Source: Thermoanaerobaculia bacterium
GTDB lineage: Bacteria > Acidobacteriota > Thermoanaerobaculia > Multivoradales > UBA5704
Direction of reading: 5' to 3'
DNA: 64,000 bases
NCBI GenBank assembly: GCA_035556715.1
Contig: DATMER010000055.1
Span: forward strand, 554 to 64,553
The first letter of the stretch is position 1. Every line of letters begins with the position of its first letter. Shown here one piece after another: positions 17,081-51,818 of this stretch. The notes beneath the pieces were generated by a model. It saw only the letters and a program-made list of their open reading frames with translations. It had not been told where the DNA came from and searched no databases. The position numbers and the translations under genes are program-made.

Positions 17081-17127
17081 AGCGGAAACAGAGACTCTGC
17101 GGTTGACGCAGGTATAGGGGAACTGAA

Positions 17128-36480: not shown

Positions 36481-36872
36481 CCCGCGGCCTCCTCGATACC
36501 TCGGTCGTCATCGGCCAGTCCGAAGAGGAGCTGGAGGCCTCGCTGCCCGGCGAGGTCGCCATTTCCGTGGCAACCCTGGCGGAGCTGCACTACGGCGTCC
36601 TCGCCACCTCCGACCCCGAGATCCGCCGCCAGCGGCTCCACCGTCTGGGCATGGTCGAAGCCATGTTCGACCCGCTTCCTCTGGATGCCGGAGTCGGACG
36701 CGCCTTTGGCATGATGGCCAACGCCGTGAAGACGGGCGGCGGGCAGCCCCGCTCCCGCGTCATGGATCTCTGGATCGCCGCCACGGCTCACTCCTACCAG
36801 CTTCCTCTCTACACGCGGAACTTCGACGATTTCAAGCTCCTCCAGAGGATGATCGAGGTCCGGAAGCTCTGA
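36468..36872 (+). CDS. vapC: PIN-domain toxin (VapC-like)
   Basis: LLDTSVVI (first acidic residue), ISVATLAELHYGV and DLWIAATAHSYQLPLYTRNFDDF. The start is ATG 36468 or GTG 36477, the latter in a GTGA overlap with the antitoxin stop. Confidence 0.88.
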   Translation: MAAVTRGLLDTSVVIGQSEEELEASLPGEVAISVATLAELHYGVLATSDPEIRRQRLHRLGMVEAMFDPLPLDAGVGRAFGMMANAVKTGGGQPRSRVMDLWIAATAHSYQLPLYTRNFDDFKLLQRMIEVRKL

Positions 36873-36880
36873 AATCGGCA

Positions 36881-37105
36881 CGGAGAGCCTCTCAGCCACG
36901 CTGAGAGGCTCTATCTGGTGTGGAGAGCCTGTTTATCCCACGGATAGTCTCTCCACAGCGCTGAGAGCCTCTTCATCCGCGTGGATAGCCTGTTTTTCTG
37001 GCGGATAGCCTCTCAGCCGGCGCGGAGAGACTGAATTTGGCGCGGAGAGGCTGTTTTTCCCACGGATAGCCTCTCCGTGGCGCTGGAAGCCTCTATTTGG
37101 CCTGG
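36881..37105. repeat. Array A: ~11 degenerate tandem units of 19-22 bp (GGA[G/T]AGCCT...)
   Basis: Units start at 36881, 36901, 36922, 36942, 36961, 36983, 37003, 37024, 37044, 37064 and 37085. Adjacent units are partly inverted, e.g. GAGCCTCTCAG-N5-CTGAGAGGCTC at 36885-36911. The array lies between the vapC stop and the secreted S8 peptidase gene. Confidence 0.8.
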
Positions 37106-37195
37106 CTCGCCCCCAACCTCCGTCCGCACCCTGTCTTTCAGAGATGTCCGAAGTCCGCTTCTCTGATACGAACTTTTCCGCGGTACGGAGGAATC

Positions 37196-39931
37196 ATGAA
37201 GACGAGAGTGCTGTGCGGGTGGAGCGTTGCCGTCCTGCTCCTGGGCTCGAGCCTGGTCCAGGCGCAGCCGAAAGCGGCGGATGAGTCGAGGCTGATCCTC
37301 CTCAACTCCCATATCATCGACACGAGCCGGCCCAGGCCAGCCACCCTGGCGATCCCGGAGGCCCTGCGGCTCCCCGGTGATGATCCCAAAGCCGACGAGA
37401 TCGTTCTCCTCAAGTTCCCGCGCCCGATCACCGCTCAACAAGAAAAGGCCCTGCGCGCGGCGAGCCTTCAGGTCTACGCCTACCTCCCGCACTACGCCTT
37501 CCTCGTGAAAATGGCCCCGGGAGGGCAGCAGAAGGCCAGGGCCCTCGGCGCGAGTTGGACCGGCCCCTATCACCCCTACTACAAGATGTCGCGGCCGGTC
37601 TCCGAGATCCCGGAGCTCGACTTCGCCCTCGATGCCTCGGGAGACGAAGAGCAGCCGCGGATCGTCATGCTTCAGGTCTTCCCGGATGCCGACGTGCGCG
37701 AGGTCGTCAGCCAGATCCGGGACGAGCTGGGCGTGCCCGGCGTGGTGGGCTGGGGCCGCGGCCAGCGATTCTCCCGCGTGCGGCTGCTGCTCACACCATC
37801 CGAAATTGCAAAGCACCGCGTGGCCCTCGCCCAGCTCGGCGAGGTGTTTTGGATCGACGTGGAGCCGCGGCGGGTCCTGCTCAACGACACCACGATCTGG
37901 GTTGGACAGTCGGGCCTGAGCGGCAGCCAGACCACCCCGATTTTCAGCCAGGGGATCTTCGGCGAGGGGCAGACGGTCGCCGTCCTCGACACGGGCATCG
38001 ATCCCGACATGTGCTTCTTCCGGGACACCGGACTGGGCCTGCCTCCCACCAACGCCTGCAACGGCGGCACGGTTGCCAATCAAAGCCAGCGCAAGGTGGT
38101 GGCGGTGAACTTCCTTGCGTCGGGCGAGTGCAGCGGCGGCATCGCCAACAACGAGTGGGACACGCACGACCACGGCTCGCACGTGGCCGGCACCGTGGCC
38201 GGCGACAACTTCACCAACCTGCTCCTCCATAACACCGCAGACGGCATGGCTCCCGGCGCCAAGCTGGTCATCCAGGACGGCGGCTTCCAGACGGACAACT
38301 GCGGCGACCTCCCCGGCATCGGTTGCCCGGTGGTGGACCTGAACCCGATCTTCCAGCAGGCCTACACCCAGGGCGCGCGCATCCACACGAACTCCTGGGG
38401 CGACAACGAGAACTCCGGGGTCCAGAACAACTACTCGTCAGGCAGCCAGGACGTGGACGAGTTCATGTGGAACCACAAGGATTTCCTGATCTTCTTCGCG
38501 GCGGGCAACTCGGGGCCGGGCACCAGCACGGTGGGCAGCCCATCGACCGCGAAGAGCGGCGTGTCCGTGGGCGCCACCCTGCGCGGCACGAGCGCCAACA
38601 GCATGGCCTCGTTCTCCAGCTGCGGCCCGACGCTTGACGGCCGCATCAAGCCGGACATCACGGTGCCGGGCTCGAGCATCGTCTCGGCCAACAACGACAT
38701 CAACGTCACCACGAACAACTGCGGCACGATCTCGATGAGCGGCACCAGCATGGCCACGCCGGGCGCCGCGGGCCTGACCGCCCTGATCCGCCAGTACTAC
38801 ACGGACGGGTGGTACCCCACGGGCAGCGAGAATTCGGCGAACGGCTTCACCCCGTCGGCAGCGCTGCTCAAGGCCACGCTGGTCAACTCGGCGGTGAGCA
38901 TGACCGGCACGACCGTGATCCCGGCCAACTGCCAGGGCTGGGGCCGGGTGCTGCTGGACAATGCCCTCTTCTTCACCGGCCAGGCGCGGGAGCTCTGGGT
39001 GCGGGACGACAATACCGGCTTCCCCACCGGCTCGACCAGTGCGCAGACCTTCACGTTCACGGTGGGCAGCGGCGAGCCGTTCAAGGCGACGCTCGCCTGG
39101 ACCGACTTCCCCTCGACCCCGGCCGCGAGCGTGAACCTGGTGAACGACCTGGACCTGACCGTCACCGGCCCGACCAGCACGATCTGGCGCGGCAATGTGT
39201 TTGCGAGCGGCCAGTCGGCCACCGGCGGCAGCTCGGACCGGCGCAACACCCTGGAGCAGGTGCTCCTGAACGTCCCGGCCGCGGGGACCTACACCGTCGA
39301 GGTCCGCGCCTTCAACGTGCCGAGCGGTCCGCAGCCCTTCGCTCTGGTGGTGACCGGCGATGTGGCCGCGGGCGGAGGCGGCAATCCCCCGGTGACAGTC
39401 TTCTCCGACACCTTCGAGACGAACCTGGGATGGACGGTGAACCCGCTCGGCACGGACACGGCCACGCTCGGCCTGTGGGAGCGGGGCGACCCGGCGGCCA
39501 CGAATTCGAGCGGCGCCAAGCAACTCGGCACGACTGTGAGCGGAGTCAACGACCTGGTGACCGGCCGTCTCGCCGGAGCCGCGGCGGGCGACCATGACGT
39601 GGACGGCGGCCTGACCACGATCCAGTCGCCGGCCATCGCGCTGCCTTCGACGGGCACTCTGACCCTGTCCTTCTCCTTCTACATGGCGCACGGCACCAAC
39701 TCCTCGACCGCGGACTCCTTCCGGGTGAGAGTGGTGGGCTCGACGACCTCGCTGGTCTTCGAGGAGCTGGGCGCGGCCAACGACGACGACGCGGTCTGGG
39801 AGTCCCGCTCGATCAACATCAGCTCGTTCGCGGGGCAGACGGTGCGCATCCGCATCGAGGCGGCGGACGCCAGCACCGCCAGTCTGGTGGAGGCGGCGGT
39901 GGATGATGTGAGGATCGTGCAACAGCCGTAG
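37196..39931 (+). CDS. Secreted S8 (subtilisin/kexin-like) peptidase with C-terminal jelly-roll-like domains
   Basis: GGAGGA RBS and signal peptide MKTRVLCGWSVAVLLLGSSLVQA, followed by an I9-like propeptide. Triad motifs are VAVLDTGID, HDHGSHVAGTVAG and SGTSMATPGAAG, plus AAGNSGPG. Confidence 0.93.
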   Translation: MKTRVLCGWSVAVLLLGSSLVQAQPKAADESRLILLNSHIIDTSRPRPATLAIPEALRLPGDDPKADEIVLLKFPRPITAQQEKALRAASLQVYAYLPHYAFLVKMAPGGQQKARALGASWTGPYHPYYKMSRPVSEIPELDFALDASGDEEQPRIVMLQVFPDADVREVVSQIRDELGVPGVVGWGRGQRFSRVRLLLTPSEIAKHRVALAQLGEVFWIDVEPRRVLLNDTTIWVGQSGLSGSQTTPIFSQGIFGEGQTVAVLDTGIDPDMCFFRDTGLGLPPTNACNGGTVANQSQRKVVAVNFLASGECSGGIANNEWDTHDHGSHVAGTVAGDNFTNLLLHNTADGMAPGAKLVIQDGGFQTDNCGDLPGIGCPVVDLNPIFQQAYTQGARIHTNSWGDNENSGVQNNYSSGSQDVDEFMWNHKDFLIFFAAGNSGPGTSTVGSPSTAKSGVSVGATLRGTSANSMASFSSCGPTLDGRIKPDITVPGSSIVSANNDINVTTNNCGTISMSGTSMATPGAAGLTALIRQYYTDGWYPTGSENSANGFTPSAALLKATLVNSAVSMTGTTVIPANCQGWGRVLLDNALFFTGQARELWVRDDNTGFPTGSTSAQTFTFTVGSGEPFKATLAWTDFPSTPAASVNLVNDLDLTVTGPTSTIWRGNVFASGQSATGGSSDRRNTLEQVLLNVPAAGTYTVEVRAFNVPSGPQPFALVVTGDVAAGGGGNPPVTVFSDTFETNLGWTVNPLGTDTATLGLWERGDPAATNSSGAKQLGTTVSGVNDLVTGRLAGAAAGDHDVDGGLTTIQSPAIALPSTGTLTLSFSFYMAHGTNSSTADSFRVRVVGSTTSLVFEELGAANDDDAVWESRSINISSFAGQTVRIRIEAADASTASLVEAAVDDVRIVQQP

Positions 39932-39946
39932 GCTTTCTTCCTTGGT

Positions 39947-39970
39947 GCGGGACGGGCTCTCCCGTCCCGC
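39947..39970 (+). terminator. Hairpin after the S8 peptidase gene (candidate intrinsic terminator)
   Basis: GCGGGACGGG, loop CTCT, then CCCGTCCCGC, a 10-bp perfect stem 16 nt after the stop. There is no clear U-tract. Confidence 0.5.
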
Positions 39971-40007
39971 GCACCTGCTGCTATCCTACGGGCCGAGCGC
40001 CTGACAA

Positions 40008-43000
40008 ATGACGATCGGCCCCGACCGGATCGATACCTCGAACCTCTTCCCCCTGGCCGAGTTCCTGACCTCGCTGTCGGATCTCGGCATCCGGGGCACG
40101 CTGGACGACTACCGGCGCATCGACCTGGCGTTGCGGGCGGGGGGGCCCTGGACGGTGTCCCAGTTCCGGGAGGTGCTGTCGTCCCTCCTGGTGCGGGACC
40201 GGGAGCAGGGGGTGGAGTTCCGGCGGCGGTTCAACGACTTCTTCTCGCTCCCTGGCCAGGATCAGGCCCGGTTCTCCGGCGTGGACCTGGAGCGGGCGCT
40301 GCCAGAGCTCCGGGGGCTGACCCCTGAGCCGAGGCTCCGGGCGATCCGGTTGCCGGACCTCTGGAAACCGCCTGAACGGAAGCGGGCCGCGCCCCGGAGG
40401 TGGCGGCGGTGGAGCTCCCTGGCGGCGCTCGTCCTCGCGGGCGCGCTCGGGTTGCAGGAGGGGCGCCCGCCGGTACCCGAGGACGCGCCGGTCGCGCAGC
40501 AGGCACGGGTCCAGGATGTCCCAAACCCGGCGACCCGGACCTATCCCCACGCACCCGTCCTGGTCCTGAAGGAAGTTCTTCCCACAGAAAGACCTCCCGC
40601 CTGGCCCGACCTCCGCCTGCTGGGCATCGCGGCCCTGGCCTATGGCTGGTGGCTCTGGAAGTGGCTCGCCGCGACGAGAGGGGGTCCGGACCCCGGAAAG
40701 ATCGACGACTCCCGGCCCCGGCTCTTCCGGCCGGAAAGCATCGGCGGGGCTCCGGCCCCACGGCTCGACCGGCAAACCCTGGACCGGCTGGCGGACTCGC
40801 TGGGATATTTCCGAAGCGAGGAGACCGGGCAGGACCTCGACGTTCCGGCTTCGGTCGAAATGACCGTCCGAAACGGCGGCATTCCGACTCCGGTCTTCGA
40901 GCTGCGGAAGCGGGTGCGGAGCCTCCTGGTTCTGGAGGACCTCCAGGCCGAGGCGCGGGCCTGGAATCCGATCGCCCGGGAGCTGGCGCTGGGGCTCGAC
41001 CGGAGAGGGATCTCCGTGGTGTACGGGACCTTCGCGGGGATACCGGACCGGTTCCGCACCGCGGACGGCCTGGACCGGCGCATCGAGGACCTGGAGGACG
41101 AGCGGCACGGCTACCTGGTGCTGATCTTCAGCGACGGCAAGGGCTTGCGTCCGGCGGAGGTCACCTTCGTCCTGGAGCGTCTTGCCCGCTGGCCGCAGGT
41201 GGCCTGGATGCAACTCCAGGAGCGGAGGGGCTGGGATTGGATCGCGGCGCGGCCAGCAGTCCACGGCCTGTCCGTGTTTCCGGCCGATCGGGAGGGCCTG
41301 CTGAGCGCCCTGGCTACTTTCACCACGGAACGGGCTCCTCTGAAGGCTCCCCGGGACCCGGAAAGCTGGCGAGGTCTCCCCCCTTTGCCCGTACAAGGGA
41401 GCCTGGAAGAGCACGTCAAGGGGATCCTGAGGGACAGCCTGCTTTGGGCCCAGGGCTGCGCCATGGCGCAGCCCCCCATCGGTCTGGGGTTGGCCGATCG
41501 CCTTCGCGAACGGTTCCATCCCTGGCTGCCGCCGGAGCGCGTCGAACGCCTTCTCGCGCTGCCGGGCAGCCGCCTGATCACGGGAGGGCTGAGGTTCGGG
41601 GACCCGGTGCTGGCCGTGCTCCGGGAGGGCTTCGTCACAGGGCGCGGCGAGGCCGAACAGGAGGCGGTCCTGGGCTTCCTCCTGGAGCAGACCCGCCTGG
41701 CGGAGCCCGACGATCCGGAGAGCCTGGCGCACCAGGCGTGGGAGTGGCGGCTGGAGCGGACGCGGTTGGAGCTCGAGCCGGAGCCGGCCGTGAAGCGCCT
41801 GGCGGTCCTTTCCCGGGGTCCGTTGGGCGAGTCCATCCGGGCCGACCTGGCCAGGGTGCAGGGTTCAGGTCCCGGGCCGAGGCGGCTCCCCCTGCGCGCT
41901 CAGCCCGGTCCGCAGGCCGCGGATCAGCTCGCCGCCATCGTGGAGGGCCGGGAGGTCTACCGGCCCGGTCTCTGGCCCGAGGCGGGGCTCGCCATCGCAG
42001 CCGTCGCGCTCCTGGCGCTCTCACTGTGGCGGATCGGCTCCTCCGATCCGGAGCAATTTGGGATGCAAGTCCAGTGGAGCGGACTGAAGGTCAACCAGAG
42101 CGCGGCCGTGAGGATCGAGCGTCGTGAGGGAGCGCGGTGGAGGCGCGTAATGGGCACGGAAAATGGGGGAGTGAGCTTAATCAGTGACAGCGAGTCCTCC
42201 GAGTATCGTGCCGTCGCCCTCATAGATGGGCTTACCGCTCCCCCCCTTCTCCTGGGAGGAACCTCCGGGACTTTCGAGATCGAGCTGAAGGTGGAGGCGC
42301 GAGAGATACCTTGCCGCGAGGAACACCCGGAGATCGGGTTGGTTGTGGATCGATGCGCGTCACCGCTGATCCATTCGGGCACACACTCTCCCCCTTCGGA
42401 AAGGAGATGGCCGGCAAGGATCGGCATCGAGATCGGAAACCGGATCACGGGCATCGGGACCGCAGACAGCCTTCTAGCTTTAAGTGAGGTCGACGTCGTT
42501 TATCGTCTGGATCCCGGACTTGGCCAATCTGACCGGACCATGAATTGGATCCGGGATGCATGGGGCTCTTGGGGCGATCGCGTCCATGTTCGATCCTGGA
42601 CGGTAAGTGAAGTCTCAACGGAAACCTTCTGGCTCGTGCATGCTTCCGACGAAGTTTCCCTTGACCGCTGGTCTCCCCCGACACGCTCGCAGCTTCAGTT
42701 TGCGTGGAGTCGCGGGATCGGGCCGACCCCGACGATACAGGAAAGCCCAGGTCGGGACGGAGCTGCCTCGATGGTCGCTTCGGAAGCGGATGGCCTGGCG
42801 AGGAACCCGGACACGTCCAGCCCGGTCCAGTCGACGGCCGAAAGCGTGAGGAGCCTGGAGGAAGAGGTCATCAGGGACCTGGAGTCAGCGCCGGCAGGCG
42901 ACCGGCGATCCGAGCTCAATCCCACGGTTCCCGGCCCGTCACCCTGTCCGGACCCGCAGCTCACCCTTTGCGGAAACGCCTGTGTGGACTTGAACACCCA

Positions 43001-43490
43001 TCCGTTTCACTCCGGGAGCTGCTTCCAGATCGCCCTAAGCCTGACCCGGACCGCCGCCGAGGGGGTGGACGAGCCGCCGGCGTGGACCGATGAAGGGATC
43101 CAGCCCCGGCGCTACTACCGTCTGTTCTATGCTTGGAACGAATCGAAGACCGCTGTCGTCGTCCGCAGCCTGCCCGCTCGGAGCCGGTGGGACCGGGGCG
43201 AGGCTCCCGGCTCGGTGGAGCTGACGCTGAGCGCGGAGGCGGTCGTCCGGCCGGGGTACACGCTGGCGGTCACCGACCTGGAGGTCCACTGCTCTGGTCC
43301 AGCACGGGTCGCGGGCTTCAACGGCACGTCGAGGAAGATGTACGAGAAGCTCAGCACTCAATCCACCTGGAGACCCTTCGGAGGGCAGCCCTGGCGCGGT
43401 CCGGCCGAGATGTCCATCCATAGCGGCCTGGCCCGGACCCTGGGCCCCGCCCTCACCCCTTGGGAGGAGCTGTGCGCCCGGCAACGTTGA
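40008..43490 (+). CDS. 3-TM membrane protein with CoxE-type vWA domain (MIDAS degenerate) and large C-terminal extracytoplasmic region
   Basis: 1160-aa ORF. The N-terminus (FLTSLSDLGIRGTLDDYRRIDLAL...LLVRDREQGVEFRRRFNDFF) parallels the CoxE-vWA paralogue at 27473. DLDVPASVEMTVRNGGIPTPVFELRKRVRSLLVLEDLQAE aligns by eye with ELDLDETIYQSARNGGEIDLVFRRGLLDRIEVVLLIDNGGSS. Hydrophobic helices lie at about aa 135-150, 203-222 and 658-676. Confidence 0.85.
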   Translation: MTIGPDRIDTSNLFPLAEFLTSLSDLGIRGTLDDYRRIDLALRAGGPWTVSQFREVLSSLLVRDREQGVEFRRRFNDFFSLPGQDQARFSGVDLERALPELRGLTPEPRLRAIRLPDLWKPPERKRAAPRRWRRWSSLAALVLAGALGLQEGRPPVPEDAPVAQQARVQDVPNPATRTYPHAPVLVLKEVLPTERPPAWPDLRLLGIAALAYGWWLWKWLAATRGGPDPGKIDDSRPRLFRPESIGGAPAPRLDRQTLDRLADSLGYFRSEETGQDLDVPASVEMTVRNGGIPTPVFELRKRVRSLLVLEDLQAEARAWNPIARELALGLDRRGISVVYGTFAGIPDRFRTADGLDRRIEDLEDERHGYLVLIFSDGKGLRPAEVTFVLERLARWPQVAWMQLQERRGWDWIAARPAVHGLSVFPADREGLLSALATFTTERAPLKAPRDPESWRGLPPLPVQGSLEEHVKGILRDSLLWAQGCAMAQPPIGLGLADRLRERFHPWLPPERVERLLALPGSRLITGGLRFGDPVLAVLREGFVTGRGEAEQEAVLGFLLEQTRLAEPDDPESLAHQAWEWRLERTRLELEPEPAVKRLAVLSRGPLGESIRADLARVQGSGPGPRRLPLRAQPGPQAADQLAAIVEGREVYRPGLWPEAGLAIAAVALLALSLWRIGSSDPEQFGMQVQWSGLKVNQSAAVRIERREGARWRRVMGTENGGVSLISDSESSEYRAVALIDGLTAPPLLLGGTSGTFEIELKVEAREIPCREEHPEIGLVVDRCASPLIHSGTHSPPSERRWPARIGIEIGNRITGIGTADSLLALSEVDVVYRLDPGLGQSDRTMNWIRDAWGSWGDRVHVRSWTVSEVSTETFWLVHASDEVSLDRWSPPTRSQLQFAWSRGIGPTPTIQESPGRDGAASMVASEADGLARNPDTSSPVQSTAESVRSLEEEVIRDLESAPAGDRRSELNPTVPGPSPCPDPQLTLCGNACVDLNTHPFHSGSCFQIALSLTRTAAEGVDEPPAWTDEGIQPRRYYRLFYAWNESKTAVVVRSLPARSRWDRGEAPGSVELTLSAEAVVRPGYTLAVTDLEVHCSGPARVAGFNGTSRKMYEKLSTQSTWRPFGGQPWRGPAEMSIHSGLARTLGPALTPWEELCARQR

Positions 43491-45916
43491 GAAAGATCCT
43501 GCTGCCCCTGACCCTCACCCTGGCCTCCCTCCCCGCGGCCGGGCAGGACGCCGAAATCGACCGCCGGATCGCCAGCGCTCAGGGGTGGGATGTGGTCGAA
43601 ATGGCGGCCTTCCCTGAGGTCCTGGTGGTGCGCCAGGGTGCCGCCGTCTACGGCCTGGACCCGTATAGCCTGCAGCAGCTCTGGGTTTTCCAGGGCACGG
43701 AGCTCGTGAACGGCCCGATCCTCCTCGGCGAACGGCTGTTCGTGATCGACAGGGAGATCAGGGAAAGCAGCTCCGGCTACGGGACCAGCCGGACCACGTA
43801 CCACAACGTCATCGAGCTCGACCCGGCCACAGGACGTCTCCGCTGGCAGAAGGAGTCCGCATCCTCGTCCGCCCGGGTGCTCTCCGCGTGCGAGAGGGTG
43901 GTCTTCCTCCTCGACAAGTTCATCCTATCCGTGTCCGGGGAGGCCCGGCCGGTCCGGGTCGCTCTGGTGAAACATCTCGGTCCCGACCTTGCGCGGGCCG
44001 TCTCTCCCGAGAGGATCTGGCTCGCCGGCGACCACTTGGTGGCGTGGGTGCCCGACCTTCGCCTCGCCGCCACCCTCCCGCTGGACGAGAGGGCCCGGCC
44101 ATGGCGGCGACCCTTCTCGGAGGGAGTCATGGATGTGGCGGGGTGCGGAGACGTGCAGGTCGTGACCACGGCCGGAGACACCCTCCTCGGCGTGGACGCA
44201 CGCACAGCGAAGACGATCTGGCAGCTCACCCGCCCCTGGGAAGACCGGCCCATCCTCCGGTTCCAACCCGGAGACTTCGTCCCCATGCCCGCAAAGCAGC
44301 GCCTGGAGGCCTACCGTTTCGTTCCGCTTGGCATTGGCAGCGATGCGCCCAAATGGCGGCTCGAGCTGGTTGAAGCTGAAGACGTTCCGGCGCACAGGCT
44401 GACCTGGATCGATCCGAAAGACGGGTCGATTCTTCCCTTTCCCCTGGAAGACGCTCTGACCGACGCCCGCGGGTTCCTCCAGGACGGGCATGAGCGTGCC
44501 GTGCTCTTTATGGGCAGCCGGCTGACCGTCCACAGCTTCGCGTCGGGAGCCAGGGAGTGGACCTACGACGCTGGAGAGCCGATCCGGCTCACGGCTCCGG
44601 CCGAAAGCTACGTGGCCCTTGTTACCGAGAGCGGGAGGCTCGACGTCCTGGGCCAGTCCCGGCCGCGGTCCCCCGAAGAGCAACCCCTCCCCGATGCGGG
44701 CGGGATCGACCTCTCCACGGATCCGGAGGACGCTGCCGTCTGGCTGGATGCCTCCTTCCTCGGCCGCGGCGGCCGGCGGATAGGGGACCTGAGCCCGGGG
44801 ACGCACCGGCTGCGGCTGGTCCATCCCGACCGCAAGAGGCTCGAAACGGTGGCGGAGGTGGCTCCCGGCCGGATCACGCCGCTCGTCCTCACCATGGAGA
44901 GCGGCGATCAGGGCACGGTCCTGATCGACTCCGACCCGGCCGGGGCGATCGTCTCTATCGACGGGGAAAAGGCCGGCAAGACCCCTTTCACTGACTACAA
45001 GTACCCGGCGGGCCAGAGCCTTCAGGTGACCGTGGAGAGAATGGGTTACTGGGATGTCCGGCAGATCCTGTCCGTCGGAGAGGAGGGTGCTACGCTCTCC
45101 GCCTCTCTCGAGCTGGCTCCTCCGCTCCTGAGTGTGTTCGGCATCGTGGGGAGGGCCGGAACAGGCCCGATCCGGGGGTGGAGGGAGACCGATATCCGGG
45201 AAGGGCAGGTAGCAGGAAGGCCCTATCGTCCGGCGGACGGCGATACATTCCTGAAGGGCACCTACTCTCTGGAGATCGGACCCCCTCGCTGGCGCTTCTT
45301 CGGCCGGGGCAACTTCTCCAGCCATGAGGACATTTTCTCCGAGTTCCAGGGCGGTGTCTGGCTCTCACTGAAGAAAGGGCTTCGAGTCGAAGCCGGAATC
45401 TCCTACCTCGCCATGGAAGGGGGCCTGGAGAGCTCGCCGCCCTCGCGCCGAGGGGAGGGCTTCGAGGGCACTCCGGACCGGGATGCTCCCCTTGAGGAAT
45501 GGGAGCATCCGGTCCCCGGCGTCTTCGTCAGGAACGACGCGCCCCGCTACTGGCTGGGACAGATCCGGCTCCGGCCGCGGGCGGGCCTCCTCGTGGAGCT
45601 TGGCGCCGGGCGCCCGCAGAATGCGAGGCTGAATGGCACCGCTCTCGTAGAGGATGCCTCCGGCCACCTCGTTCGGGACCCGGCCCGGTTCTACGACTTC
45701 CGCGCTCGTGGCGGCGAGATCCTGGACGCGCGGCTCCATCTGGCGTTGGGCACCTTCCGGATCTGGAAGCTCGCCCCCAGCACGGCGGTCGAGATCCACT
45801 ACCGGTTCCGCCGGACGGACTTCGGCGCCGTCGAAGAGAAGACCAGCGAGCTCACACTCGGGTTCGGGGTCCTCTTGTTTCGCAGCCAACCGTTGGATGT
45901 GTGGGGTCTGCGGTGA
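43460..45916 (+). CDS. Secreted PQQ-like beta-propeller + tandem PEGA domain protein with beta-rich C-terminus
   Basis: Signal-like LRKILLPLTLTLASLPAAGQD. BamB/PQQ-type blades include VYGLDPYSLQQLW, ELDPATGRLRWQ and GVDARTAKTIWQ. PEGA motifs are DAAVWLDASFLGRGG...GTHRLRL and GAIVSIDGEKAGKTPF. The start is TTG 43460 or GTG 43472, and the gene overlaps the upstream gene by about 20-30 nt. Confidence 0.85.
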   Translation: MGGAVRPATLRKILLPLTLTLASLPAAGQDAEIDRRIASAQGWDVVEMAAFPEVLVVRQGAAVYGLDPYSLQQLWVFQGTELVNGPILLGERLFVIDREIRESSSGYGTSRTTYHNVIELDPATGRLRWQKESASSSARVLSACERVVFLLDKFILSVSGEARPVRVALVKHLGPDLARAVSPERIWLAGDHLVAWVPDLRLAATLPLDERARPWRRPFSEGVMDVAGCGDVQVVTTAGDTLLGVDARTAKTIWQLTRPWEDRPILRFQPGDFVPMPAKQRLEAYRFVPLGIGSDAPKWRLELVEAEDVPAHRLTWIDPKDGSILPFPLEDALTDARGFLQDGHERAVLFMGSRLTVHSFASGAREWTYDAGEPIRLTAPAESYVALVTESGRLDVLGQSRPRSPEEQPLPDAGGIDLSTDPEDAAVWLDASFLGRGGRRIGDLSPGTHRLRLVHPDRKRLETVAEVAPGRITPLVLTMESGDQGTVLIDSDPAGAIVSIDGEKAGKTPFTDYKYPAGQSLQVTVERMGYWDVRQILSVGEEGATLSASLELAPPLLSVFGIVGRAGTGPIRGWRETDIREGQVAGRPYRPADGDTFLKGTYSLEIGPPRWRFFGRGNFSSHEDIFSEFQGGVWLSLKKGLRVEAGISYLAMEGGLESSPPSRRGEGFEGTPDRDAPLEEWEHPVPGVFVRNDAPRYWLGQIRLRPRAGLLVELGAGRPQNARLNGTALVEDASGHLVRDPARFYDFRARGGEILDARLHLALGTFRIWKLAPSTAVEIHYRFRRTDFGAVEEKTSELTLGFGVLLFRSQPLDVWGLR

Positions 45917-47838
45917 CCGAGGCAATGACCGAGCCGGAGCGCTGGTTCGTCGAGCTCTGGATGGAAGGGGGTTCCCATCAGGGCCGCATCCACCGCGGCA
46001 GCTCCGACCGTGGTTTTTCCTTCGAGGCACCGGCCCTTGGCCCCGATGCCACGATCCCCGGATGGCCCGAGACCCTGGGCACTCTTCTGGAGCGCCTGCT
46101 GAAGCTGGACGTGAGCTTCGAGCGGATCTTCGACGAGCGGCTCCAGGTCGAGCTCGGCAAACACCTCTGGACTCAGACCTTCGGCCGGATCGACAACCTG
46201 GACTTCCCCGAGGAAGGGGATGTCGAGGTACAGATCGTCACCGAGGACGAGCATCTCGCCCGTCTCCCCTGGGTGCTCCTGAACCGGCGCGGACCGTTCC
46301 TCTGCGCGTGTGGCTGGTCTGTGGCCCTCACCCGCTCGGCCGCCGGCCAGGAGGACTACATCCTCTCCCCTTCCCCCAAGATGCTGATCGTCGCGCCGGA
46401 GCCTGTGGGCCCGGGCCTGCCGCCCACCCATGCGGCCTCCCACGTGGAAGATCTGGAACGGATGCTCTGCGAGGCAGACCACCGCCTTCAGAGAGGCAAG
46501 AACCTGCAGGTCGTCTCCGGATGGGACGAGGTCGGACCGGCCCTGCAGCAGCTCCAGCCCCATCTCCTCTACTACTACGGCCACGGCAGGGGGAGCGCGG
46601 CCCGGTCGCGGCTCGTCTTCACCCGGAGCTCCGACCCGAAGCCGCTGGAGGTCCCGGTGGCCGACTTCGCTCACGAGCTCCGGCGCTTCGCTGGGCCGCA
46701 GCTCCTCTTCGCCTATATCAACTGCTGCCAGGGCGATGCCGGCGGCCTCCTGGGCGCGGGCTGGCAGTTGGGCGAGGTCGTGCCCGCAGTCGTGACCAAC
46801 CGCACCCTGGCTTACGTGCCGGCCGCCCGCGCCCAGGGCCTGGAGCTCTGGCGGGCGCTTCTGATCGAGGGCGATCCGCCGCACAGCGCCGTGGCGAACC
46901 TCCACGCGCGCCTGGAGATCCCGGAGCAGAGCTTCGGGAACACCCGCTGGATGAACCCGGTCCTCCACCGCCGGTATGCGCGCTGGATCTCCACTCCGCC
47001 GCGGCGTCGCTCCCGCCTGGACCGCGATCCGCACTGGAACGTGAAGCTGGACCGGTCCAATCAGTTCGGCCGGGTCTTCAACGACACGGACCTGATGCTG
47101 TATGAGAAAAGGCCTCGGGTCCTCGCCTACATCTGGTACGGCGAGGAGGGCCAGGGGGTCGATCTCTTTCATCAGCGCTTCCAGGTGGAGCTGCAGGAAC
47201 GACTGAAAAAGGCCCTCCTCCTGGAGGTCAAGCCTGAGTGGCCCCAAGAGCTGCGCAATCCCTACCGGTCGTTCGCGGACATGATTGCCCACGCCTGCGA
47301 CATTCAGGATCTCTCCGACTTCACCGCCTGGGTCCGCTCCGAAGGGCAGATCGACCGGCGGCGCACTCCCCTCGTCCACGTTCGCCATGAGCCCCTGAAC
47401 CAGGGGGAGGCCGTGAAGCCCTCCACCCTGAAGACTTACCTGGAGTGGTGGAACAAGCAGCTCGTCCCGTGCCTGGAGGAAGCCAAAGCCTTCGGCCTGC
47501 TGGGCATCTCCTTCCTGGCGCAGAAGAACCCCGCCCGCCTCCGGGATCGGCTGAACCAGGAGCTTGGAGGGCTGGACCTCGACGACGTCACATTTACGGT
47601 GCTCGATGAGCTCGAGGAGCTCGTCCTCCAGGACCTCAGGACCTTCCTTAAGGGTCACCACGTCGCACTGCCCCCCTCCCTGAGGGACAACGTCCTGGCC
47701 CGTATCCTGGAAAAGACCGGCGGGCGCTACGAGATGACCCTGGAGGAGCTCAAGAGAGTCGTGGATAAGGCCTGGGACGACGAGGACCAGGCGGAGGAGC
47801 CGGTCGCACAGCCCGGCGACAACGAAGACGACTGGTAG
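45913..47838 (+). CDS. Caspase-like (CHAT-type His/Cys) protease domain fused to a degenerate P-loop NTPase-like module
   Basis: The GTG at 45913 forms a GTGA overlap with the upstream stop, with an alternative ATG at 45925. A His motif LLYYYGHG (His codon 46582-46584) is followed about 47 aa later by LLFAYINCCQG (Cys codons 46723-46728). This mirrors VHFATHG...VVLSGCETALG of the CHAT protein at 56513. A later segment, VLAYIWYGEEGQGVDLF, looks like a decayed Walker A. Confidence 0.8.
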   Translation: MTEAMTEPERWFVELWMEGGSHQGRIHRGSSDRGFSFEAPALGPDATIPGWPETLGTLLERLLKLDVSFERIFDERLQVELGKHLWTQTFGRIDNLDFPEEGDVEVQIVTEDEHLARLPWVLLNRRGPFLCACGWSVALTRSAAGQEDYILSPSPKMLIVAPEPVGPGLPPTHAASHVEDLERMLCEADHRLQRGKNLQVVSGWDEVGPALQQLQPHLLYYYGHGRGSAARSRLVFTRSSDPKPLEVPVADFAHELRRFAGPQLLFAYINCCQGDAGGLLGAGWQLGEVVPAVVTNRTLAYVPAARAQGLELWRALLIEGDPPHSAVANLHARLEIPEQSFGNTRWMNPVLHRRYARWISTPPRRRSRLDRDPHWNVKLDRSNQFGRVFNDTDLMLYEKRPRVLAYIWYGEEGQGVDLFHQRFQVELQERLKKALLLEVKPEWPQELRNPYRSFADMIAHACDIQDLSDFTAWVRSEGQIDRRRTPLVHVRHEPLNQGEAVKPSTLKTYLEWWNKQLVPCLEEAKAFGLLGISFLAQKNPARLRDRLNQELGGLDLDDVTFTVLDELEELVLQDLRTFLKGHHVALPPSLRDNVLARILEKTGGRYEMTLEELKRVVDKAWDDEDQAEEPVAQPGDNEDDW

Positions 47839-47858
47839 AACCGCGAGGAGGAGCCCTG

Positions 47859-48809
47859 ATGACCGCTGCCTATCCCTTCCGGCTGATCGACCGCCGCCGA
47901 GAGGGTCCCATGGAAGACCCGGGGCTCCTGCGCCAGCGCCCCTTCATCCAGCTCCGGCGGACCTTCGAGGACGACGCCAGGCTGTTCGACTCGGGCGACG
48001 AGTTGGAGACGGCCATGAACACGGCTCTCGCCGTGGGACTCCCTCTTCTGATCACCGGCGAGCCCGGCACGGGCAAGACCCAGGCCGCGTACTACGCAGC
48101 GTGGAAGCTGAGAGCCGAGCCCGTGATCCACTTCCAGGTCAAGTCCGACAGCACGGCCCGCGACCTCCTCTACTCCTTCGACACCGTGCAGTACTTCCAC
48201 GACGCCCATCTCGCCGGGTCCGGGGAGCTCCCGGACAAGATCAAGTACCGGACGCCGCGGGAGCTCTGGGACGCCCTGAAGTCGCCCAACCCCCGCGTGC
48301 TCCTGATCGACGAGATCGACAAGGCCCCCCGCGACTTCCCCAACGACCTGCTCCATGAGCTGGACAAAATGGAGTTCACCGTCCGGGAGACCCGGGAGAA
48401 GATCGACGCCGAGCCGGAGATGCGGCCGGTGGTCTTCATCACCTCCAACAGCGAGAGACGCCTCCCCGAGCCCTTCCTGCGGCGCTGTGTCTACCACAAC
48501 ATCCGGTTCGATGAGGAGCTGGTCCGGCGGGCGGTGAGGGTCCGGCGCGAGCGCGGAGAGTACGGCAACCTGAGCGACGGGTTCCTGGAGATGGCTCTCC
48601 AGCGCTTCCTGGCCCTGCGGGAGCGGAGCCTGCGCAAACCGCCAGCCACCGGCGAGCTTCTGGTCTGGCTGCGGGTGCTCGCCCTGGCCGCCGGAACCTA
48701 CCCGGAGAGGCTGGAGGAGAGGGACCTCTCCAAGCTGCCTTACTTGGGGACCCTCCTCAAGGACCACGATGACATTGAGAGCCTTCCGCGCGAGAAGGGC
48801 CGGCCATAG
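47859..48809 (+). CDS. MoxR-like AAA+ ATPase
   Basis: GAGGAGGAG RBS, Walker A LLITGEPGTGKTQ, Walker B VLLIDEIDKAPRD and VVFITSNSERRLPEPFLRRC. It is a paralogue of 26639..27463. Confidence 0.92.
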   Translation: MTAAYPFRLIDRRREGPMEDPGLLRQRPFIQLRRTFEDDARLFDSGDELETAMNTALAVGLPLLITGEPGTGKTQAAYYAAWKLRAEPVIHFQVKSDSTARDLLYSFDTVQYFHDAHLAGSGELPDKIKYRTPRELWDALKSPNPRVLLIDEIDKAPRDFPNDLLHELDKMEFTVRETREKIDAEPEMRPVVFITSNSERRLPEPFLRRCVYHNIRFDEELVRRAVRVRRERGEYGNLSDGFLEMALQRFLALRERSLRKPPATGELLVWLRVLALAAGTYPERLEERDLSKLPYLGTLLKDHDDIESLPREKGRP

Positions 48810-48830: not shown

Positions 48831-51332
48831 TCACCTCCCGATCTGGCTCAGGATCTGGGGGTCGGTGATTTTGGTGTCCTCAGCCAGGAGGAACGCCTTG
48901 CTGAGGATGACTGCCAGGGTGCCGTCCCCCTCGAAGGGGAGGACCGGCTGGGCTCCGCGCGGAGACCGGTCCGCAACGATACAGAGATATTGGTCGTTCG
49001 GCTCCAGCAGAATGTTGCCGCTGCCCAGGTGGATCTTGTAGGTCTTCCGTTCTCCCCGGACCACGAGGAAGCGCTCGGTCAGGGTGCAGCGGTCCGCGAT
49101 CTTCAGTCGAGGGACCAGCCTCCCGAGCAGCTCCCGGCGGGTGCGGGCGCTCTCGCCCAACTCGCCGAAGGAGTACTCGCGCCAGTAGCCCGTCCCCGGA
49201 CGATCCCCTCCGGCAGTCCAGTTGGGGTCGTTGCCCACGCTGCAGACCCCCACGAAGAGGTCCACGTCGCGCATCAGCTCGGAGAACAGGAGGGGCGGCA
49301 CCTGCTCCAGGGGTTGCGGCACGCCTGCCAGGTCGCAGAACCGCACCTGGTCGGTGGCAACGTAGAGGTAGATGGCCATCTCCGAGGCGTCTTCCCCGGC
49401 GGCGTCGACCCAGAATTCGACCCGGAGGCCGTGCTCCGGGATCATCAGGAACGGGGTGTTGTGGGAGTCGAACTGTCCCTGAAGCCCGTAGGTCCAGCCT
49501 CGCTGCCTGCAGAGTGCCGCGAACTGGTGCTGCTTGAGGATGTGGGCGGCGAACCGGTTCGAGTAGATGGCCGTCTGCCGCTCGGCGTCGGTGAGCAGGT
49601 AGATCTCGCGGTGGGCCTGCTTGAAGGGCTGAACCACCTCCCAGGCTTCGAGGCGGGTGCGCCAGGCCAGCACCTCGTCCGCCTGGGAGTCGAGAGGGTG
49701 CCATAAGGAAACCCGGGTGTCTTCCGGAAGATCGAGCGGCTGCTCCTCGGCATCCACGATCCGGTCCTCGCGCCAGAAGCCAGTCTGTGTCCCAAAGCAC
49801 CAGATCAGGCGGCGCGCCAGGGTTCCGACGAGAGGATGATCCAGGTAGCGCTCGCGCCAGGTGGCGAGGTCCCAGTCGCGAGGAAACAGGTAGAGCCGCT
49901 CCAGGCGGTCGCGCTGGCCCGGGAGGAGCTTCTGGATCTCCCTGGCCGCGGCGGTCAGGGCTTTCAGCTCGTCCGCGTGGCCCTCCTTGACCGCCTTGGG
50001 TACGGACTTCTGCGGCTTGCCCTGCTGCAACCAGGTCAGCTCGGTGGAGGCCGTGCCGGTGACCCGCAGCTCGGCGGTGAAGCCGCCCAGGGTCTCCCGG
50101 CGCAGCCCGGGCTCCGTAAGGCCCAGAGTGGGGACCGCCATCTCCTCCAGCTCGGCCTTGGTGAGACCTTGCCGCTCGGCCGCCTTGCCCAGGAGGGTTT
50201 CGAGCTGCTTGCGCGAGGAGGGGTGCTGGACCCGGGTACGCAGACGGCTGAGCTGGGCCACGGCCTCCGGGGTGCCCAGGCGGCTCAGGGTGTCCAGGCA
50301 GGCGTTGCCCACCTTGGCATTGCGTGGGCCGTGGCCGTCGACTTTCCGGAAGCAGGCCTCCGCGGCCCTGCCGACGGCGGCCGTGAGCGCGGGATCGTCC
50401 ACCAGGTTGGCGCACCAGGCCAACCCCCGCAGGAGGTCGGTCTGCTCGTCGTCCAGGAGGGTAGGTTCGATCTCGTACTGGTGACTCATGAATGTCTGCA
50501 CCTTCCTCATCCCCGGCTCGCCGACCCGGCCCAGGCAGAGGGTCAAGACCCGGGAGACTCCCTCCGGGGCCAGCACGCCCGACAACTCCTTCGCCCGGGA
50601 GAGCCATTTCGACGACGGCCTGGCCGAGGTCGCGGTCGCGCAATGCGCGAGGAGGTCCAGCCAGGCCGCGGCGTCTCCGGGCAGCATGGCATCGAGCGCG
50701 TCCAGGAGTGTGTTGGCCCAGGCGTCTCCGCGGCGCAGGTCCAGGCCCGGCTCCTTGGGGCTGCCGTGCCGGAGGAGGTGGCGGAGCCTTTCCAGAACCT
50801 TCCTCTGCTCCAGGTTGGGATGACGGGCGAGCCGGTCCGGCAGCGTGCCCAGGGTAGCGCGCAGGTGCACGCCGAGCCCGTGCTCCCGGACGTGGTCCTC
50901 CAAGGTGCGCAGGAAGACCGGGACCGGCATCATACAGGCGCTCTCTCCGAGGTCGCGGACGGCCTCCGCGAGCCGGACGAGTTGCTCCTCCTGGAAAACG
51001 GGCTTCCGGCGCAACAGAGGCCCGGCCAGACTCGTAGCCATCATCATGGCGTTGTGGTTGTGGCTCCGGGCCGCGTGCAGGTATCGCAGGAACACCTCGA
51101 CTGCCAGCTCCGCCTGGGCACGGGGATCAAGGCCGAAGATCGTGCGCCCGGCAGCATGCTCGCCGGGATCGAACCGGATGTTGAGCTGGCGCCACGGCCC
51201 GCCATGTCTTGTGAGCGCCTGCGCCAGGAGATCATCGAGGAGAGACGGGCCCGCAGTGGGATGGGGGCCGGGCGTCTTCTCCTCCGTCCGGGCACGGCCT
51301 TTCCCCGTGAGGCCCTCGAGCCACTTCCACAT
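48831..51332 (-). CDS. DUF4132 domain protein (helical-repeat N-terminus)
   Basis: 833-aa ORF with GGAGGG upstream. The C-terminal half (WRERYLDHPLVGTLARRLIW...PFKQAHREIY...FAAHILKQHQFAALCRQRGW...YKIHLGSGNIL) matches my memory of the DUF4132/MolR-like family. Confidence 0.8.
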   Translation of the reverse strand: MWKWLEGLTGKGRARTEEKTPGPHPTAGPSLLDDLLAQALTRHGGPWRQLNIRFDPGEHAAGRTIFGLDPRAQAELAVEVFLRYLHAARSHNHNAMMMATSLAGPLLRRKPVFQEEQLVRLAEAVRDLGESACMMPVPVFLRTLEDHVREHGLGVHLRATLGTLPDRLARHPNLEQRKVLERLRHLLRHGSPKEPGLDLRRGDAWANTLLDALDAMLPGDAAAWLDLLAHCATATSARPSSKWLSRAKELSGVLAPEGVSRVLTLCLGRVGEPGMRKVQTFMSHQYEIEPTLLDDEQTDLLRGLAWCANLVDDPALTAAVGRAAEACFRKVDGHGPRNAKVGNACLDTLSRLGTPEAVAQLSRLRTRVQHPSSRKQLETLLGKAAERQGLTKAELEEMAVPTLGLTEPGLRRETLGGFTAELRVTGTASTELTWLQQGKPQKSVPKAVKEGHADELKALTAAAREIQKLLPGQRDRLERLYLFPRDWDLATWRERYLDHPLVGTLARRLIWCFGTQTGFWREDRIVDAEEQPLDLPEDTRVSLWHPLDSQADEVLAWRTRLEAWEVVQPFKQAHREIYLLTDAERQTAIYSNRFAAHILKQHQFAALCRQRGWTYGLQGQFDSHNTPFLMIPEHGLRVEFWVDAAGEDASEMAIYLYVATDQVRFCDLAGVPQPLEQVPPLLFSELMRDVDLFVGVCSVGNDPNWTAGGDRPGTGYWREYSFGELGESARTRRELLGRLVPRLKIADRCTLTERFLVVRGERKTYKIHLGSGNILLEPNDQYLCIVADRSPRGAQPVLPFEGDGTLAVILSKAFLLAEDTKITDPQILSQIGR

Positions 51333-51422
51333 GGTCCCTCCGTCCGGCGTGTCAGCTTGGCTTCAGATTAGCACGCGCGCCCGGCTACAATGGCGCGAGA
51401 GCCCGCATACAGGAGGCGAAGG

Positions 51423-51818
51423 ATGACCACGGCCCTGACCATCCACGACGAGACTACCTCGGGGGAGAGGCGCCAGAGCCTGACGCTCCAACTGCCGGAG
51501 CCCACGATCTCAGCCCGGGAGCTGATCCGTGCCCGGGTCTTCGAGGAGGTCAAGGCATTCAACGAGACCCTCCCCGAGCGCTTCCAGGGGCTGGTCCAGC
51601 CCACGGATACCGAGCGGGAGCTGAACGGCTTCCGTCTCAAGGAGCGGCGCAAGCTGGACTGGCACGAACAGAGCCGCGCCGCCCTGGAGGATTTCGAGCG
51701 CAACGGCTTCCTCATCCTCGTGGACGACCGCCAGATCGAGTCGCTCGCAGAGGAGATCCGGGTGCGGCCGGAGACCCGGGTCACGTTCCTGAAGCTGGTC
51801 CCGCTGGTCGGAGGATAG
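51423..51818 (+). CDS. Small protein with ThiS/MoaD-like C-terminus ending in Gly-Gly
   Basis: CAGGAGG lies upstream of the ATG at 51423. The 131-aa protein ends FLILVDDRQIESLAEEIRVRPETRVTFLKLVPLVGG-stop. Its stop is 5 nt before the next gene, and its last codons (GGAGGA) double as that gene's RBS. Confidence 0.7.
   Translation: MTTALTIHDETTSGERRQSLTLQLPEPTISARELIRARVFEEVKAFNETLPERFQGLVQPTDTERELNGFRLKERRKLDWHEQSRAALEDFERNGFLILVDDRQIESLAEEIRVRPETRVTFLKLVPLVGG

Follow-up and report, generated by a model that had tools for sequence, protein, structure and literature searches.

We analysed a 64,000-nt stretch of contig DATMER010000055.1 from a Thermoanaerobaculia bacterium (Acidobacteriota; GenBank assembly GCA_035556715.1), referred to below as the window (G+C ~67%), in which four co-directional, tightly coupled open reading frames (ORFs), here termed g1 to g4, fill positions 40008–48809. 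As collected in Table 1, these appear to encode a membrane protein with a von Willebrand factor A-like (vWA) domain, a secreted protein, a caspase-like (CHAT) protease joined to an inactive STAND (iSTAND) module, and a MoxR-clade AAA+ ATPase, and together they very probably constitute a membrane-embedded iSTAND-type MoxR–vWA ternary conflict system in the sense of Kaur et al. (2020), in a sub-branch with an added envelope component. Depending on whether g2 starts at TTG 43460, GTG 43472 or TTG 43487, it overlaps g1 by 31, 19 or 4 nt, with the g1 stop codon (43488–43490) lying inside g2; the 19-nt overlap is kept in 6 of 7 homologous operons, and g2 therefore probably starts at GTG 43472. The g2/g3 junction is a GTGA overlap (45913–45916), and the public gene call for g3 (P0001, 637 aa) uses an in-frame ATG at 45925 that fits the family N-terminus slightly better. 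Between g3 and g4 lies a 20-nt gap containing GAGGAGGAG (47845–47853), a Shine-Dalgarno-like sequence. Upstream of g1, beyond the stop codon (39929–39931) of an S8 subtilase gene, a terminator-like hairpin without a T-run was predicted to fold at −26.2 kcal/mol (z = −4.57), a stability that none of 200 shuffles reached. The overlaps, the 20-nt gap, the hairpin and a convergent gene downstream, from which a preliminary description of this DNA had read a single operon, were all found again.

Table 1. Features of the four-gene operon and its boundaries (positions in the window; residue numbers refer to the encoded proteins)
Feature	Position	Strand	Description
g1	40008–43490	+	1160 aa, vWA component
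g1 residues 17–78, N-terminal 4-helix domain	40056–40241	+	AlphaFold2 (AF2) helices 17–26, 32–43, 50–61, 65–78
g1 residues 133–224, predicted transmembrane segments TM1 (~133–152) and TM2 (~202–224) with a Pro-rich loop between them	40404–40679	+	AF2 helices 133–147, 202–224
g1 residues 250–440, divergent vWA-like alpha/beta domain	40755–41327	+	vWA strand order in AF2 model, NorD fold match
g1 residues 466–645, conserved helical domain	41403–41942	+	AF2 predicted local distance difference test (pLDDT) ~93; conserved across family
g1 residues 655–677, predicted TM3	41970–42038	+	Kyte-Doolittle 2.04, AF2 helix 655–677
g1 residues 684–876, predicted extracytoplasmic membrane-adjacent region	42057–42635	+	beta-sandwich, then alpha/beta module; AF2 strands 684–781
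g1 residues 976–1160, Cys-rich C-terminal module	42933–43487	+	185 aa, low pLDDT; presence tracks g2
g2	43472–45916	+	secreted envelope protein; alternative starts 43460, 43487
g2 C-terminal tail, ~250 aa	45119–45913	+	rare family, beta-rich
g3	45913–47838	+	CHAT caspase-like protease + iSTAND module; start GTG 45913 or ATG 45925
g3 catalytic dyad region	46582–46728	+	His220 in YYYGHG (46582–46584), Cys267-Cys268 in NCCQGD (46723–46728)
g3 residues ~345–620, iSTAND module	46957–47784	+	degenerate P-loop, Walker B acidic pair absent
Shine-Dalgarno-like GAGGAGGAG	47845–47853	+	5′ of g4, read from sequence
g4	47859–48809	+	316 aa, MoxR-clade AAA+ ATPase
Terminator-like hairpin	39945–39972	+	12-bp GC-rich stem, after upstream S8 subtilase gene; 5′ operon boundary
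Convergent DUF4132/DUF7737 gene	48831–51332	−	3′ boundary of operon

The g3 product belongs to a family of 146 homologues of ~630 aa each. A Pfam scan of the window protein gave no match, the iSTAND family PF19995 remaining below threshold, and the Pfam CHAT and PF19995 models matched 6 and 5 of 43 homologues, respectively. Its AF2 model (pLDDT 85) was more informative in Foldseek searches, in which the N-terminal half matched the TPR-CHAT protein Csx29 (7zoq, 2e-9), SAVED-CHAT (8tl0) and separase (range 2e-9 to 1e-6), and the C-terminal half matched Orc1/Cdc6 and CED-4 (AAA+/STAND fold); the asked-after caspase-like fold was thus recovered, and the CHAT chain of 8tl0 was in addition matched by a family profile (4.5e-5) over the stretch with the catalytic dyad. 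A 43-sequence alignment shows no variation at H220 and C268 and at least 90% conservation at C267 (numbered from ATG 45925; these residues correspond exactly to His224 and Cys271/272 of the preliminary description, counted from GTG 45913). The P-loop reads GEEGQGVD, without the Lys and Ser/Thr (family consensus GxxGQGVE), and the Walker B position reads LVHVRHEP, without an acidic pair. Because the His/Cys dyad is invariant, the P-loop is degenerate and both folds match, g3 is modelled as an apparently active caspase-like (CHAT) protease fused to a dead STAND module. Among homologues the N-terminal domain is exchanged for TIR (P0026) or for PF19956, PF19960 and PF19961, which we take to be families of effector-associated domains (EADs); such swaps are typical of immune systems. 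Searches of plasmid and phage collections with g3 gave no match.

The g4 product matches Pfam AAA_5 (7.5e-14), carries Walker A (GEPGTGKT, 48057–48080) and Walker B (VLLIDE, 48297–48314) motifs, and is 69–91% identical across related operons. Its matches in the PDB were weak and to midasin AAA domains, and an NCBIfam model for a ‘MadB family AAA-type ATPase’ was matched in part (52.6 bits against a cut-off of 475). There is no Trp in its N-terminal 60 aa, and the WxhapG and PsWRxa motifs are absent. With its motifs intact, g4 reads as an apparently active MoxR-clade AAA+ ATPase.

For g1 the AF2 model has a mean pLDDT of 69, rising to ~90 over residues 250–645. The four N-terminal helices (pLDDT 62–84) do not match the Pfam family VWA_CoxE and may be the counterpart of the CoxE-type N-terminal domain of Kaur et al. 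Directly N-terminal of TM1 lies RKRAAPRRWRRW. Of the three transmembrane (TM) helices that had been predicted earlier, TM3 is robust (Kyte-Doolittle 2.04); TM1 and TM2 are weak here (1.2 and 1.1) and strong at the same positions in homologues (2.0–2.9), most of which also have a TM segment at the TM3 position, so that the three-TM topology recurs through the family. In the vWA-like domain, strand 1 ends in LVLED (D311, invariant across the family) and strand 4 in IFSDG (D376, at least 90% conserved), and the serines of the DxSxS motif are absent. Aspartates ending strands 1 and 4 are what defines the vWA domain for Kaur et al. (PMC7159879); because both are conserved, calling g1 devoid of a metal-ion-dependent adhesion site (MIDAS) was an overstatement, correct for the serines only. 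The best Foldseek match in the PDB, and the one that bears out the vWA assignment, was NorD (9qhe_G, E = 4e-3, prob 0.99). Neither g1 nor the shared N-terminal region of 26 homologues matched Pfam, and a 17-sequence profile of residues 236–450 had zero matches among PDB sequences even at E ≤ 10; g1 is therefore best modelled as carrying a divergent vWA fold that is detectable by structure comparison alone.

The conserved helical domain that follows (466–645) corresponds by position to the ‘vWA-L’ linker described in a 2021 follow-up paper (PMC8195603). Beyond TM3, weak Foldseek matches to pilin/transthyretin-like beta-sandwich folds (E ~0.01–0.3) were assigned to residues 684–876, a region with weak similarity to its counterpart in P0126–P0128, P0130, P0134 and P0143, and in the AF2 model a disordered linker connects the alpha/beta module (to 876) with the C-terminal module. 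The latter is 48–62% identical in loci L052, L053 and L057–L062, and six of its cysteines recur in at least 8 of 9 homologues, which suggests disulfides and hence an extracytoplasmic location. TM3 likewise places the C-terminal region outside the cytoplasm, and since MoxR and g3 are without export signals, the vWA domain would lie inside and the last ~480 aa outside. We therefore predict, in line with the topology first proposed, an inner-membrane protein whose N-terminal domain, vWA domain and helical linker are cytoplasmic and whose final ~480 aa are extracytoplasmic. A match of the full-length g1 family profile to formylglycine-generating enzymes (FGE) at 1e-23 proved an artefact, because other family members carry FGE-sulfatase domains; for the C-terminal module of the window protein itself an FGE-sulfatase fold was ruled out (hmmsearch E > 0.6, hhalign prob 0.4%).

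The g2 product has a signal-peptide-like N-terminus and matches Pfam PEGA (1.9e-16, in two stretches) and PQQ_2 (6e-8). Its tail defines a rare family, of which 1.84 billion proteins yielded 29 representatives. Those of full length also begin with a signal-peptide-like sequence, and a Pfam scan of ten family members found PEGA in 10/10 and a propeller in 8/10. Many members end in ...LGLGhhhF (e.g., ...LGLGLMLF, ...GIGLILF), a residue pattern resembling an outer-membrane beta-barrel signal; in the window protein ...GVLLF is followed by 11 further residues. About 11 amphipathic beta-strand segments were counted in the tail. Overall, Pfam, AF2/Foldseek and motif evidence upheld the domain calls made earlier for all four proteins.

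To place the operon among its relatives, g3 homologues were sought in one genome per species, which gave 50 loci from at least eight phyla (Acidobacteriota, Desulfobacterota including cable bacteria, Gamma-, Alpha- and Zetaproteobacteria, Chloroflexota, Planctomycetota, Verrucomicrobiota, KSB1 and Myxococcota). Wherever enough downstream sequence was present, g4 lay 3′ of g3 in 41 of 43 loci, and among the 25 loci flanked by 6 kb or more on either side, 24 had a homologue of the first ~650 aa of g1 no farther than 10 kb from g3. L043 (a truncated orphan copy) and L050 (the most distant match) are the exceptions in these neighbourhoods. These adjacencies mark the g1/g3/g4 triad as the conserved unit. 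The orphan in L043 comprises g3 residues 6–451, has neither g1 nor g4 nearby, and shares a 4.8-Mb Desulfobacterales contig with the complete system L014; L007 contains two copies of g4 (1852–2787 and 12743–13678).

Against this constant core, the part of g1 beyond TM3 is highly variable. Identity to L052 falls from 83% for g4 through 67% for g3 and 59% for g2 to 49% for g1, and in a second relative, P0123, g1 is 73% identical over the vWA region and only 40% over the C-terminal region. Across the family, g1 homologues diverge completely beyond TM3: an FGE-sulfatase/lectin-like domain is found in 9 of 27, and others carry Ig-like, PEGA, CarboxypepD_reg, WD40 propeller or periplasmic solute-binding domains. 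The slot between g1 and g3 is variable too, holding a reverse transcriptase (RT) gene in L036, an RT together with an HRDC gene in L038, and elsewhere an AAA-ATPase/PDDEXK gene, DUF29 or DUF4058. In L036 a 121-nt repeat is shared between the g1 3′ end and the RT region (5123–5243 / 6786–6906), and 18 of the 19 mismatches between variable and template repeat fall at template adenines, the signature of a diversity-generating retroelement (DGR); by sequence, this locus clearly carries a DGR aimed at the g1 C-terminal region. L038, with three repeat copies in matching places (two of them resembling variable repeats; 6675–6847, 7500–7672 / 9359–9531) and only about half of the mismatches at template adenines, looks similar and may be a second DGR-like locus. 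Hypervariable and DGR-targeted g1 C-termini favour a role for this region as an envelope sensor. In L005 a separate 704-aa gene (7300–9414; a TM segment, then an FGE-sulfatase domain) starts where the 766-aa g1 homologue ends, either a natural split or a frameshift; natural vWA splits are reported in a minority of iSTAND systems (PMC8195603).

The gene order g1-g2-g3-g4 is shared by the window, L052, L057 and L059–L062, together with L001, in which g1 runs off the contig, so that all four families co-occur outside this genome, at g3 identities down to 48% and g2 identities of 30–37%. Of the 9 loci whose g1 carries the Cys-rich module, 7 have a g2 gene, against none of the 33 that lack the module (Fisher p = 1.3e-6, ignoring phylogeny). 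Moreover, PEGA and propeller domains are fused directly to the g1 homologues P0130 and P0143. An initial reading of g2 as a private insertion in the closest clade (one of 50 genome loci by tblastn, three proteins by a word-based search) was dropped, because g2 homologues of 31–37% identity occupy the same slot in L059–L062; a hand-built degenerate DNA pattern for the g2 family found only two metagenome loci. Thus, g2 is a recurrent component of one sub-branch, seen in at least eight loci, and the preliminary description of it as a dedicated secreted partner holds within that sub-branch only, the closest relative (L058) having no g2. A further g2-family protein, 37% identical over g2 residues 438–785, occurs in L056 (1171 bases read of the 66-kb contig Ga0075426_10000066).

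A candidate target of the protease emerged from the same loci. A ~100-aa gene with a Pepco domain (PF24393) lies directly 5′ of g1 in L059, L061 and L062, and by tblastn Pepco adjoins the g1 homologue in at least 20 loci (L002, L003, L011, L014, L016, L019, L020, L027, L033, L036, L038–L042, L044, L045, L059, L061 and L062). Cleavage turns Pepco into an active pore-former (bioRxiv 10.1101/2025.11.14.688446), and the adjacent Pepco is likely to be the protease substrate in many of these sister systems. A six-frame hidden Markov model (HMM) search found no Pepco in L051–L053, L058 or L060. The L059 operon sits among RepA_C, HTH, PIN and SSB-like genes (1808–2779, 17117–19419), which may indicate a mobile-element context, and a giant Metallophos-NACHT-WD40 protein is encoded near the L062 operon (16001–17917).

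The set of components agrees closely with what Kaur, Burroughs, Iyer and Aravind (eLife 2020; PMC7159879) named ‘vWA-MoxR subsystem 2: iSTAND ternary system’. In that class, itself a computational prediction, MoxR lacks VMAP-type extensions; the vWA protein has a CoxE-type 4-helix N-terminal domain, N-terminal TM segments in ~28% of cases and a variable C-terminus in which FGS is commonest; PEGA, OmpA, PASTA and Sel1 domains follow the TM segment in a membrane-proximal subset; and the iSTAND protein carries a caspase-like, trypsin-like, TIR or EAD domain at its N-terminus (PMC7159879). The window shares the MoxR protein without VMAP extensions, the vWA protein with a predicted 4-helix domain, TM segment, linker and variable C-terminus, the inactive STAND with an N-terminal caspase-like peptidase, and the affinity to the PEGA-type membrane-proximal subset, in keeping with the preliminary description, where the cluster was linked to the NTP-dependent conflict systems that Kaur et al. 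had predicted. It differs in that the propeller and PEGA domains reside in a separate secreted protein with a beta-signal-like tail of its own, in that this protein is tied to a Cys-rich g1 module not named in the Kaur work, and in that the evidence favours the g1 C-terminus as sensor and not as effector. The architecture had been put forward as undescribed; this is true of the separate secreted g2, whereas the g1/g3/g4 core and the TM/PEGA subset were already published. What is new here is therefore a four-gene version with a separate envelope partner, within a published class.

Other MoxR–vWA systems resemble the window less. VMAP Pfam families matched neither g3 nor its 43 homologues, iSTAND being found instead, and the operon is accordingly not of the VMAP type. 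Nor does it belong to the beta-propeller subsystem 4, given a vWA protein without a fused propeller and a canonical P-loop: in subsystem 4 the vWA protein carries a fused propeller of ~4 blades, a TPR/propeller protein is the third component and the P-loop is often GXXXTAKS (Kaur et al. 2020), whereas here the propeller is in secreted g2, the third component is CHAT-iSTAND and the g4 P-loop is GEPGTGKT. Dore et al. (2023) proposed DGR-diversified vWA proteins with lectin-like C-termini, some of them predicted to be periplasmic, as antigen sensors (bioRxiv 10.1101/2023.09.22.558884); these VMAP systems have in common with the window a MoxR–vWA pair and a third, protease-bearing component, and differ in that the third component of the window is iSTAND, its MoxR has no Trp motifs and no DGR is present. 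In the experimentally supported Esr pathway of Actinomycetales, MoxR–vWA proteins and surface beta-propellers sense epibionts, and a Ser/Thr kinase, a phosphatase and an FHA protein control Esx secretion (Wang et al. 2026 preprint; PMC13622651). As described, Esr shares with the window MoxR–vWA, beta-propeller envelope sensing and a cytoplasmic response; CHAT and iSTAND are missing from it, and its setting is a Gram-positive envelope. On the output side, the parallel is with Pepco-Avs4 (Evans et al. 2025 preprint), Csx29/Craspase, SAVED-CHAT and bacterial gasdermin, in which a sensor-licensed caspase-like or serine protease cleaves a latent death effector. The protease domain of g3 is structurally closest to Csx29 and SAVED-CHAT, and its activation would proceed via MoxR–vWA–iSTAND, not via a CRISPR effector, a cyclic-nucleotide SAVED domain or an active STAND. 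Finally, NorQ/NorD and CoxD/CoxE also pair a MoxR AAA+ protein with a vWA protein, NorD being the best structural match of the g1 vWA domain; unlike g1 to g4, they are soluble metalloenzyme maturation factors with a canonical MIDAS and without TM segments, ectodomain, protease or iSTAND.

The flanks of the operon are syntenic with L051, where a PatA_N response regulator, an S8 subtilase, the system and DUF2911 follow one another. Compared with L051, the window contains additional DNA at 48831–55054, which may be an insertion, as well as additional PIN and DegV genes; DUF2911 directly follows g4 in L051. The extra block contains the DUF4132/DUF7737 gene and ORFs without a Pfam match (51390–51818, 51824–52759 and 53591–55054). 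5′ of the S8 gene lie a PatA_N/DUF4388 response regulator (32756–34252), a DUF4388-DegV fusion protein (34281–36095) and a PIN-domain protein (36210–36872), the latter two absent in L051. The S8 subtilase itself (37097–39931, plus strand; 944 aa, Pfam S8 1.6e-46, with a signal peptide after an internal Met) is directly 5′ of g1 and presumably secreted; close homologues occur 5′ of g1 in L058 and L051 and 3′ of g4 on the opposite strand in L001, and are absent in L052 and L053. Adjacency in two arrangements hints at a link with the system. About 8 kb downstream of the operon, a 1099-aa TPR-CHAT protein (56513–59812, minus strand; Pfam CHAT 4.6e-66) represents a second caspase-like protease in the window. 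An IetAS identity for g4 and the S8 gene was rejected: the match of g4 to PADLOC IetA (1.8e-4 over 34 residues) covers the P-loop only, and the S8 match to IetS covers the generic subtilase core.

Taking identity and function together, we consider an iSTAND ternary system with an envelope-sensing input to be the best explanation of the operon, with a probability of roughly 0.6. An envelope-sensing input had been suggested before; it is plausible, DGR targeting of homologous C-termini supports it, and for the window we continue to infer it. How a signal would reach the protease is a more tentative matter, and the following sequence of events is held with a little less than even confidence. We hypothesize that the variable g1 ectodomain, here the Cys-rich C-terminal module together with g2, would receive an envelope threat (phage adsorption, cell-wall damage or a contacting cell) and pass the signal on to the vWA domain by way of TM3 and the helical linker. 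MoxR (g4), the putative partner of the g1 vWA domain, would then remodel the vWA–iSTAND complex in an ATP-driven manner, whereupon the CHAT protease carried on g3, with the dead STAND as its scaffold, would be released or assembled and could cleave a latent effector or cellular targets, leading to growth arrest or death. A stronger version, in which outer-membrane-anchored g2 docks on the Cys-rich periplasmic g1 module so that a disturbance of the outer membrane or the peptidoglycan is relayed over the inner membrane and through MoxR to cytoplasmic CHAT as trans-envelope surveillance, we regard as unlikely in its full form.

The published model assigns the opposite polarity, with iSTAND as the sensor and the vWA C-terminal domains (PEGA and others) as peptidoglycan-associating effectors (PMC7159879, PMC8195603). 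Applied to the window, iSTAND would sense a cytoplasmic cue (e.g., nucleic acid), MoxR–vWA would set the threshold, and CHAT would cut g1 and so free or activate its C-terminal envelope domains, perhaps with g2, as cell-wall effectors. That iSTAND is the constant component agrees with this polarity, which nonetheless fits poorly because the protease is cytoplasmic and the supposed effector domains are non-enzymatic, extracytoplasmic and diversified. They lie across the membrane from the protease; their folds (lectin-like FGS, Ig-like, solute-binding, propeller) are binding folds; DGR targets, present in at least one homologue, are typical of receptors; and in sister loci Pepco is the better effector candidate. 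For these reasons we find the original polarity doubtful here. Very unlikely, in our judgement, is a housekeeping module for envelope biogenesis or quality control, in which a MoxR–vWA chaperone like CoxD/E, NorQ/D or RavA/ViaA matures or inserts an envelope complex including g2 and the g1 ectodomain and CHAT carries out processing. All characterised MoxR–vWA pairs are, to our knowledge, maturation chaperones, and NorD as best fold match, a chromosomal and syntenic site, the lack of copies on plasmids or phages and a secreted S8 protease as recurrent neighbour would suit such a role; the patchy distribution over phyla, the loss of g2 in close relatives, hypervariable C-termini that are DGR-diversified in at least one case, the TIR and other N-terminal swaps on g3 homologues and a pore-forming death effector linked in at least 20 loci would not.

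Two further alternatives concern the scope of the system and not its core. L058, L053 and L051 retain the g1/g3/g4 triad but have no g2, unrelated genes fill the same slot elsewhere, and the g2 family also occurs apart from iSTAND genes (L055), all of which one would expect if g2 were a passenger in a variable slot and the functional unit were the g1/g3/g4 triad alone. A passenger would hardly be expected to retain the same slot and the same 19-nt overlap where g3 is only 48–50% identical, to co-occur strictly with one g1 C-terminal module, or to have analogous domains fused to g1 homologues, and we rate this possibility as decidedly unlikely. Many hosts, among them Electrothrix, Thiothrix, Parabeggiatoa, Chloroflexaceae, Caldilineaceae and some members of the Desulfobacterales, are filamentous or multicellular. 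Together with the significant association of iSTAND systems with multicellularity (77/103; PMC7159879), this raises a self/non-self or developmental cell-death switch of multicellular or aggregating bacteria, serving kin recognition or the sacrifice of damaged cells and not anti-phage defence. Such a switch is compatible with the best explanation; DGR diversification, however, points to an open-ended ligand set. The Acidobacteriota with this version are not known to be multicellular, and we give the switch only a slim chance.

Several observations weigh against an envelope-sensing iSTAND system in this window and were taken into account in the estimate above. In g1, TM1 and TM2 are only weakly hydrophobic, and the vWA domain, assigned from one weak fold match (E = 4e-3) and context, was detected by none of the sequence profiles tried (Pfam, PDB). 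The outer-membrane location of g2 derives from a sequence pattern alone, the Fisher test linking g2 with the Cys-rich module takes no account of phylogeny, and g2 is missing from the closest relatives L058 (g3 77% identical), L053 and L051, where g1-g3-g4 is kept. Furthermore, a long-form g2 homologue in L055 stands apart from any iSTAND genes, so that the broader g2 family is not restricted to these systems. The operon site is syntenic with the related genome L051; no recognisable defence island surrounds it, PADLOC results for ten neighbours being non-specific, and PADLOC-DB v2.0 gave no system match, with zero matches for g1, g2 and g3, so that the defence-island setting considered in the preliminary description was not borne out. 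Neither Pepco (by tblastn and a six-frame HMM built from 20 homologues) nor gasdermin nor any other recognised protease substrate was found in the window. The authors who defined the class proposed the opposite polarity, and, as had been stated earlier, we found no experimental study of iSTAND systems in the literature.

Predicted in 2020, iSTAND systems have been linked to the origins of apoptosis-like signalling, and the family described here provides a hypothesis, testable by mutagenesis, for the route from an envelope signal to the licensing of a caspase-like protease. It bears on the question of which component senses, on which published models disagree, and its g2-bearing sub-branch offers a candidate outer-membrane partner. 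The Pepco-bearing sister operons (L059, L061 and L062) are better experimental models than the window. Should trans-envelope surveillance be correct, the CHAT protease of these sister operons would cleave Pepco into a pore, with phage adsorption or DNA injection, a predator or an epibiont as triggers, and the system would represent an immune sensor of bacteria that registers an attack while the invader is still outside the cytoplasm.

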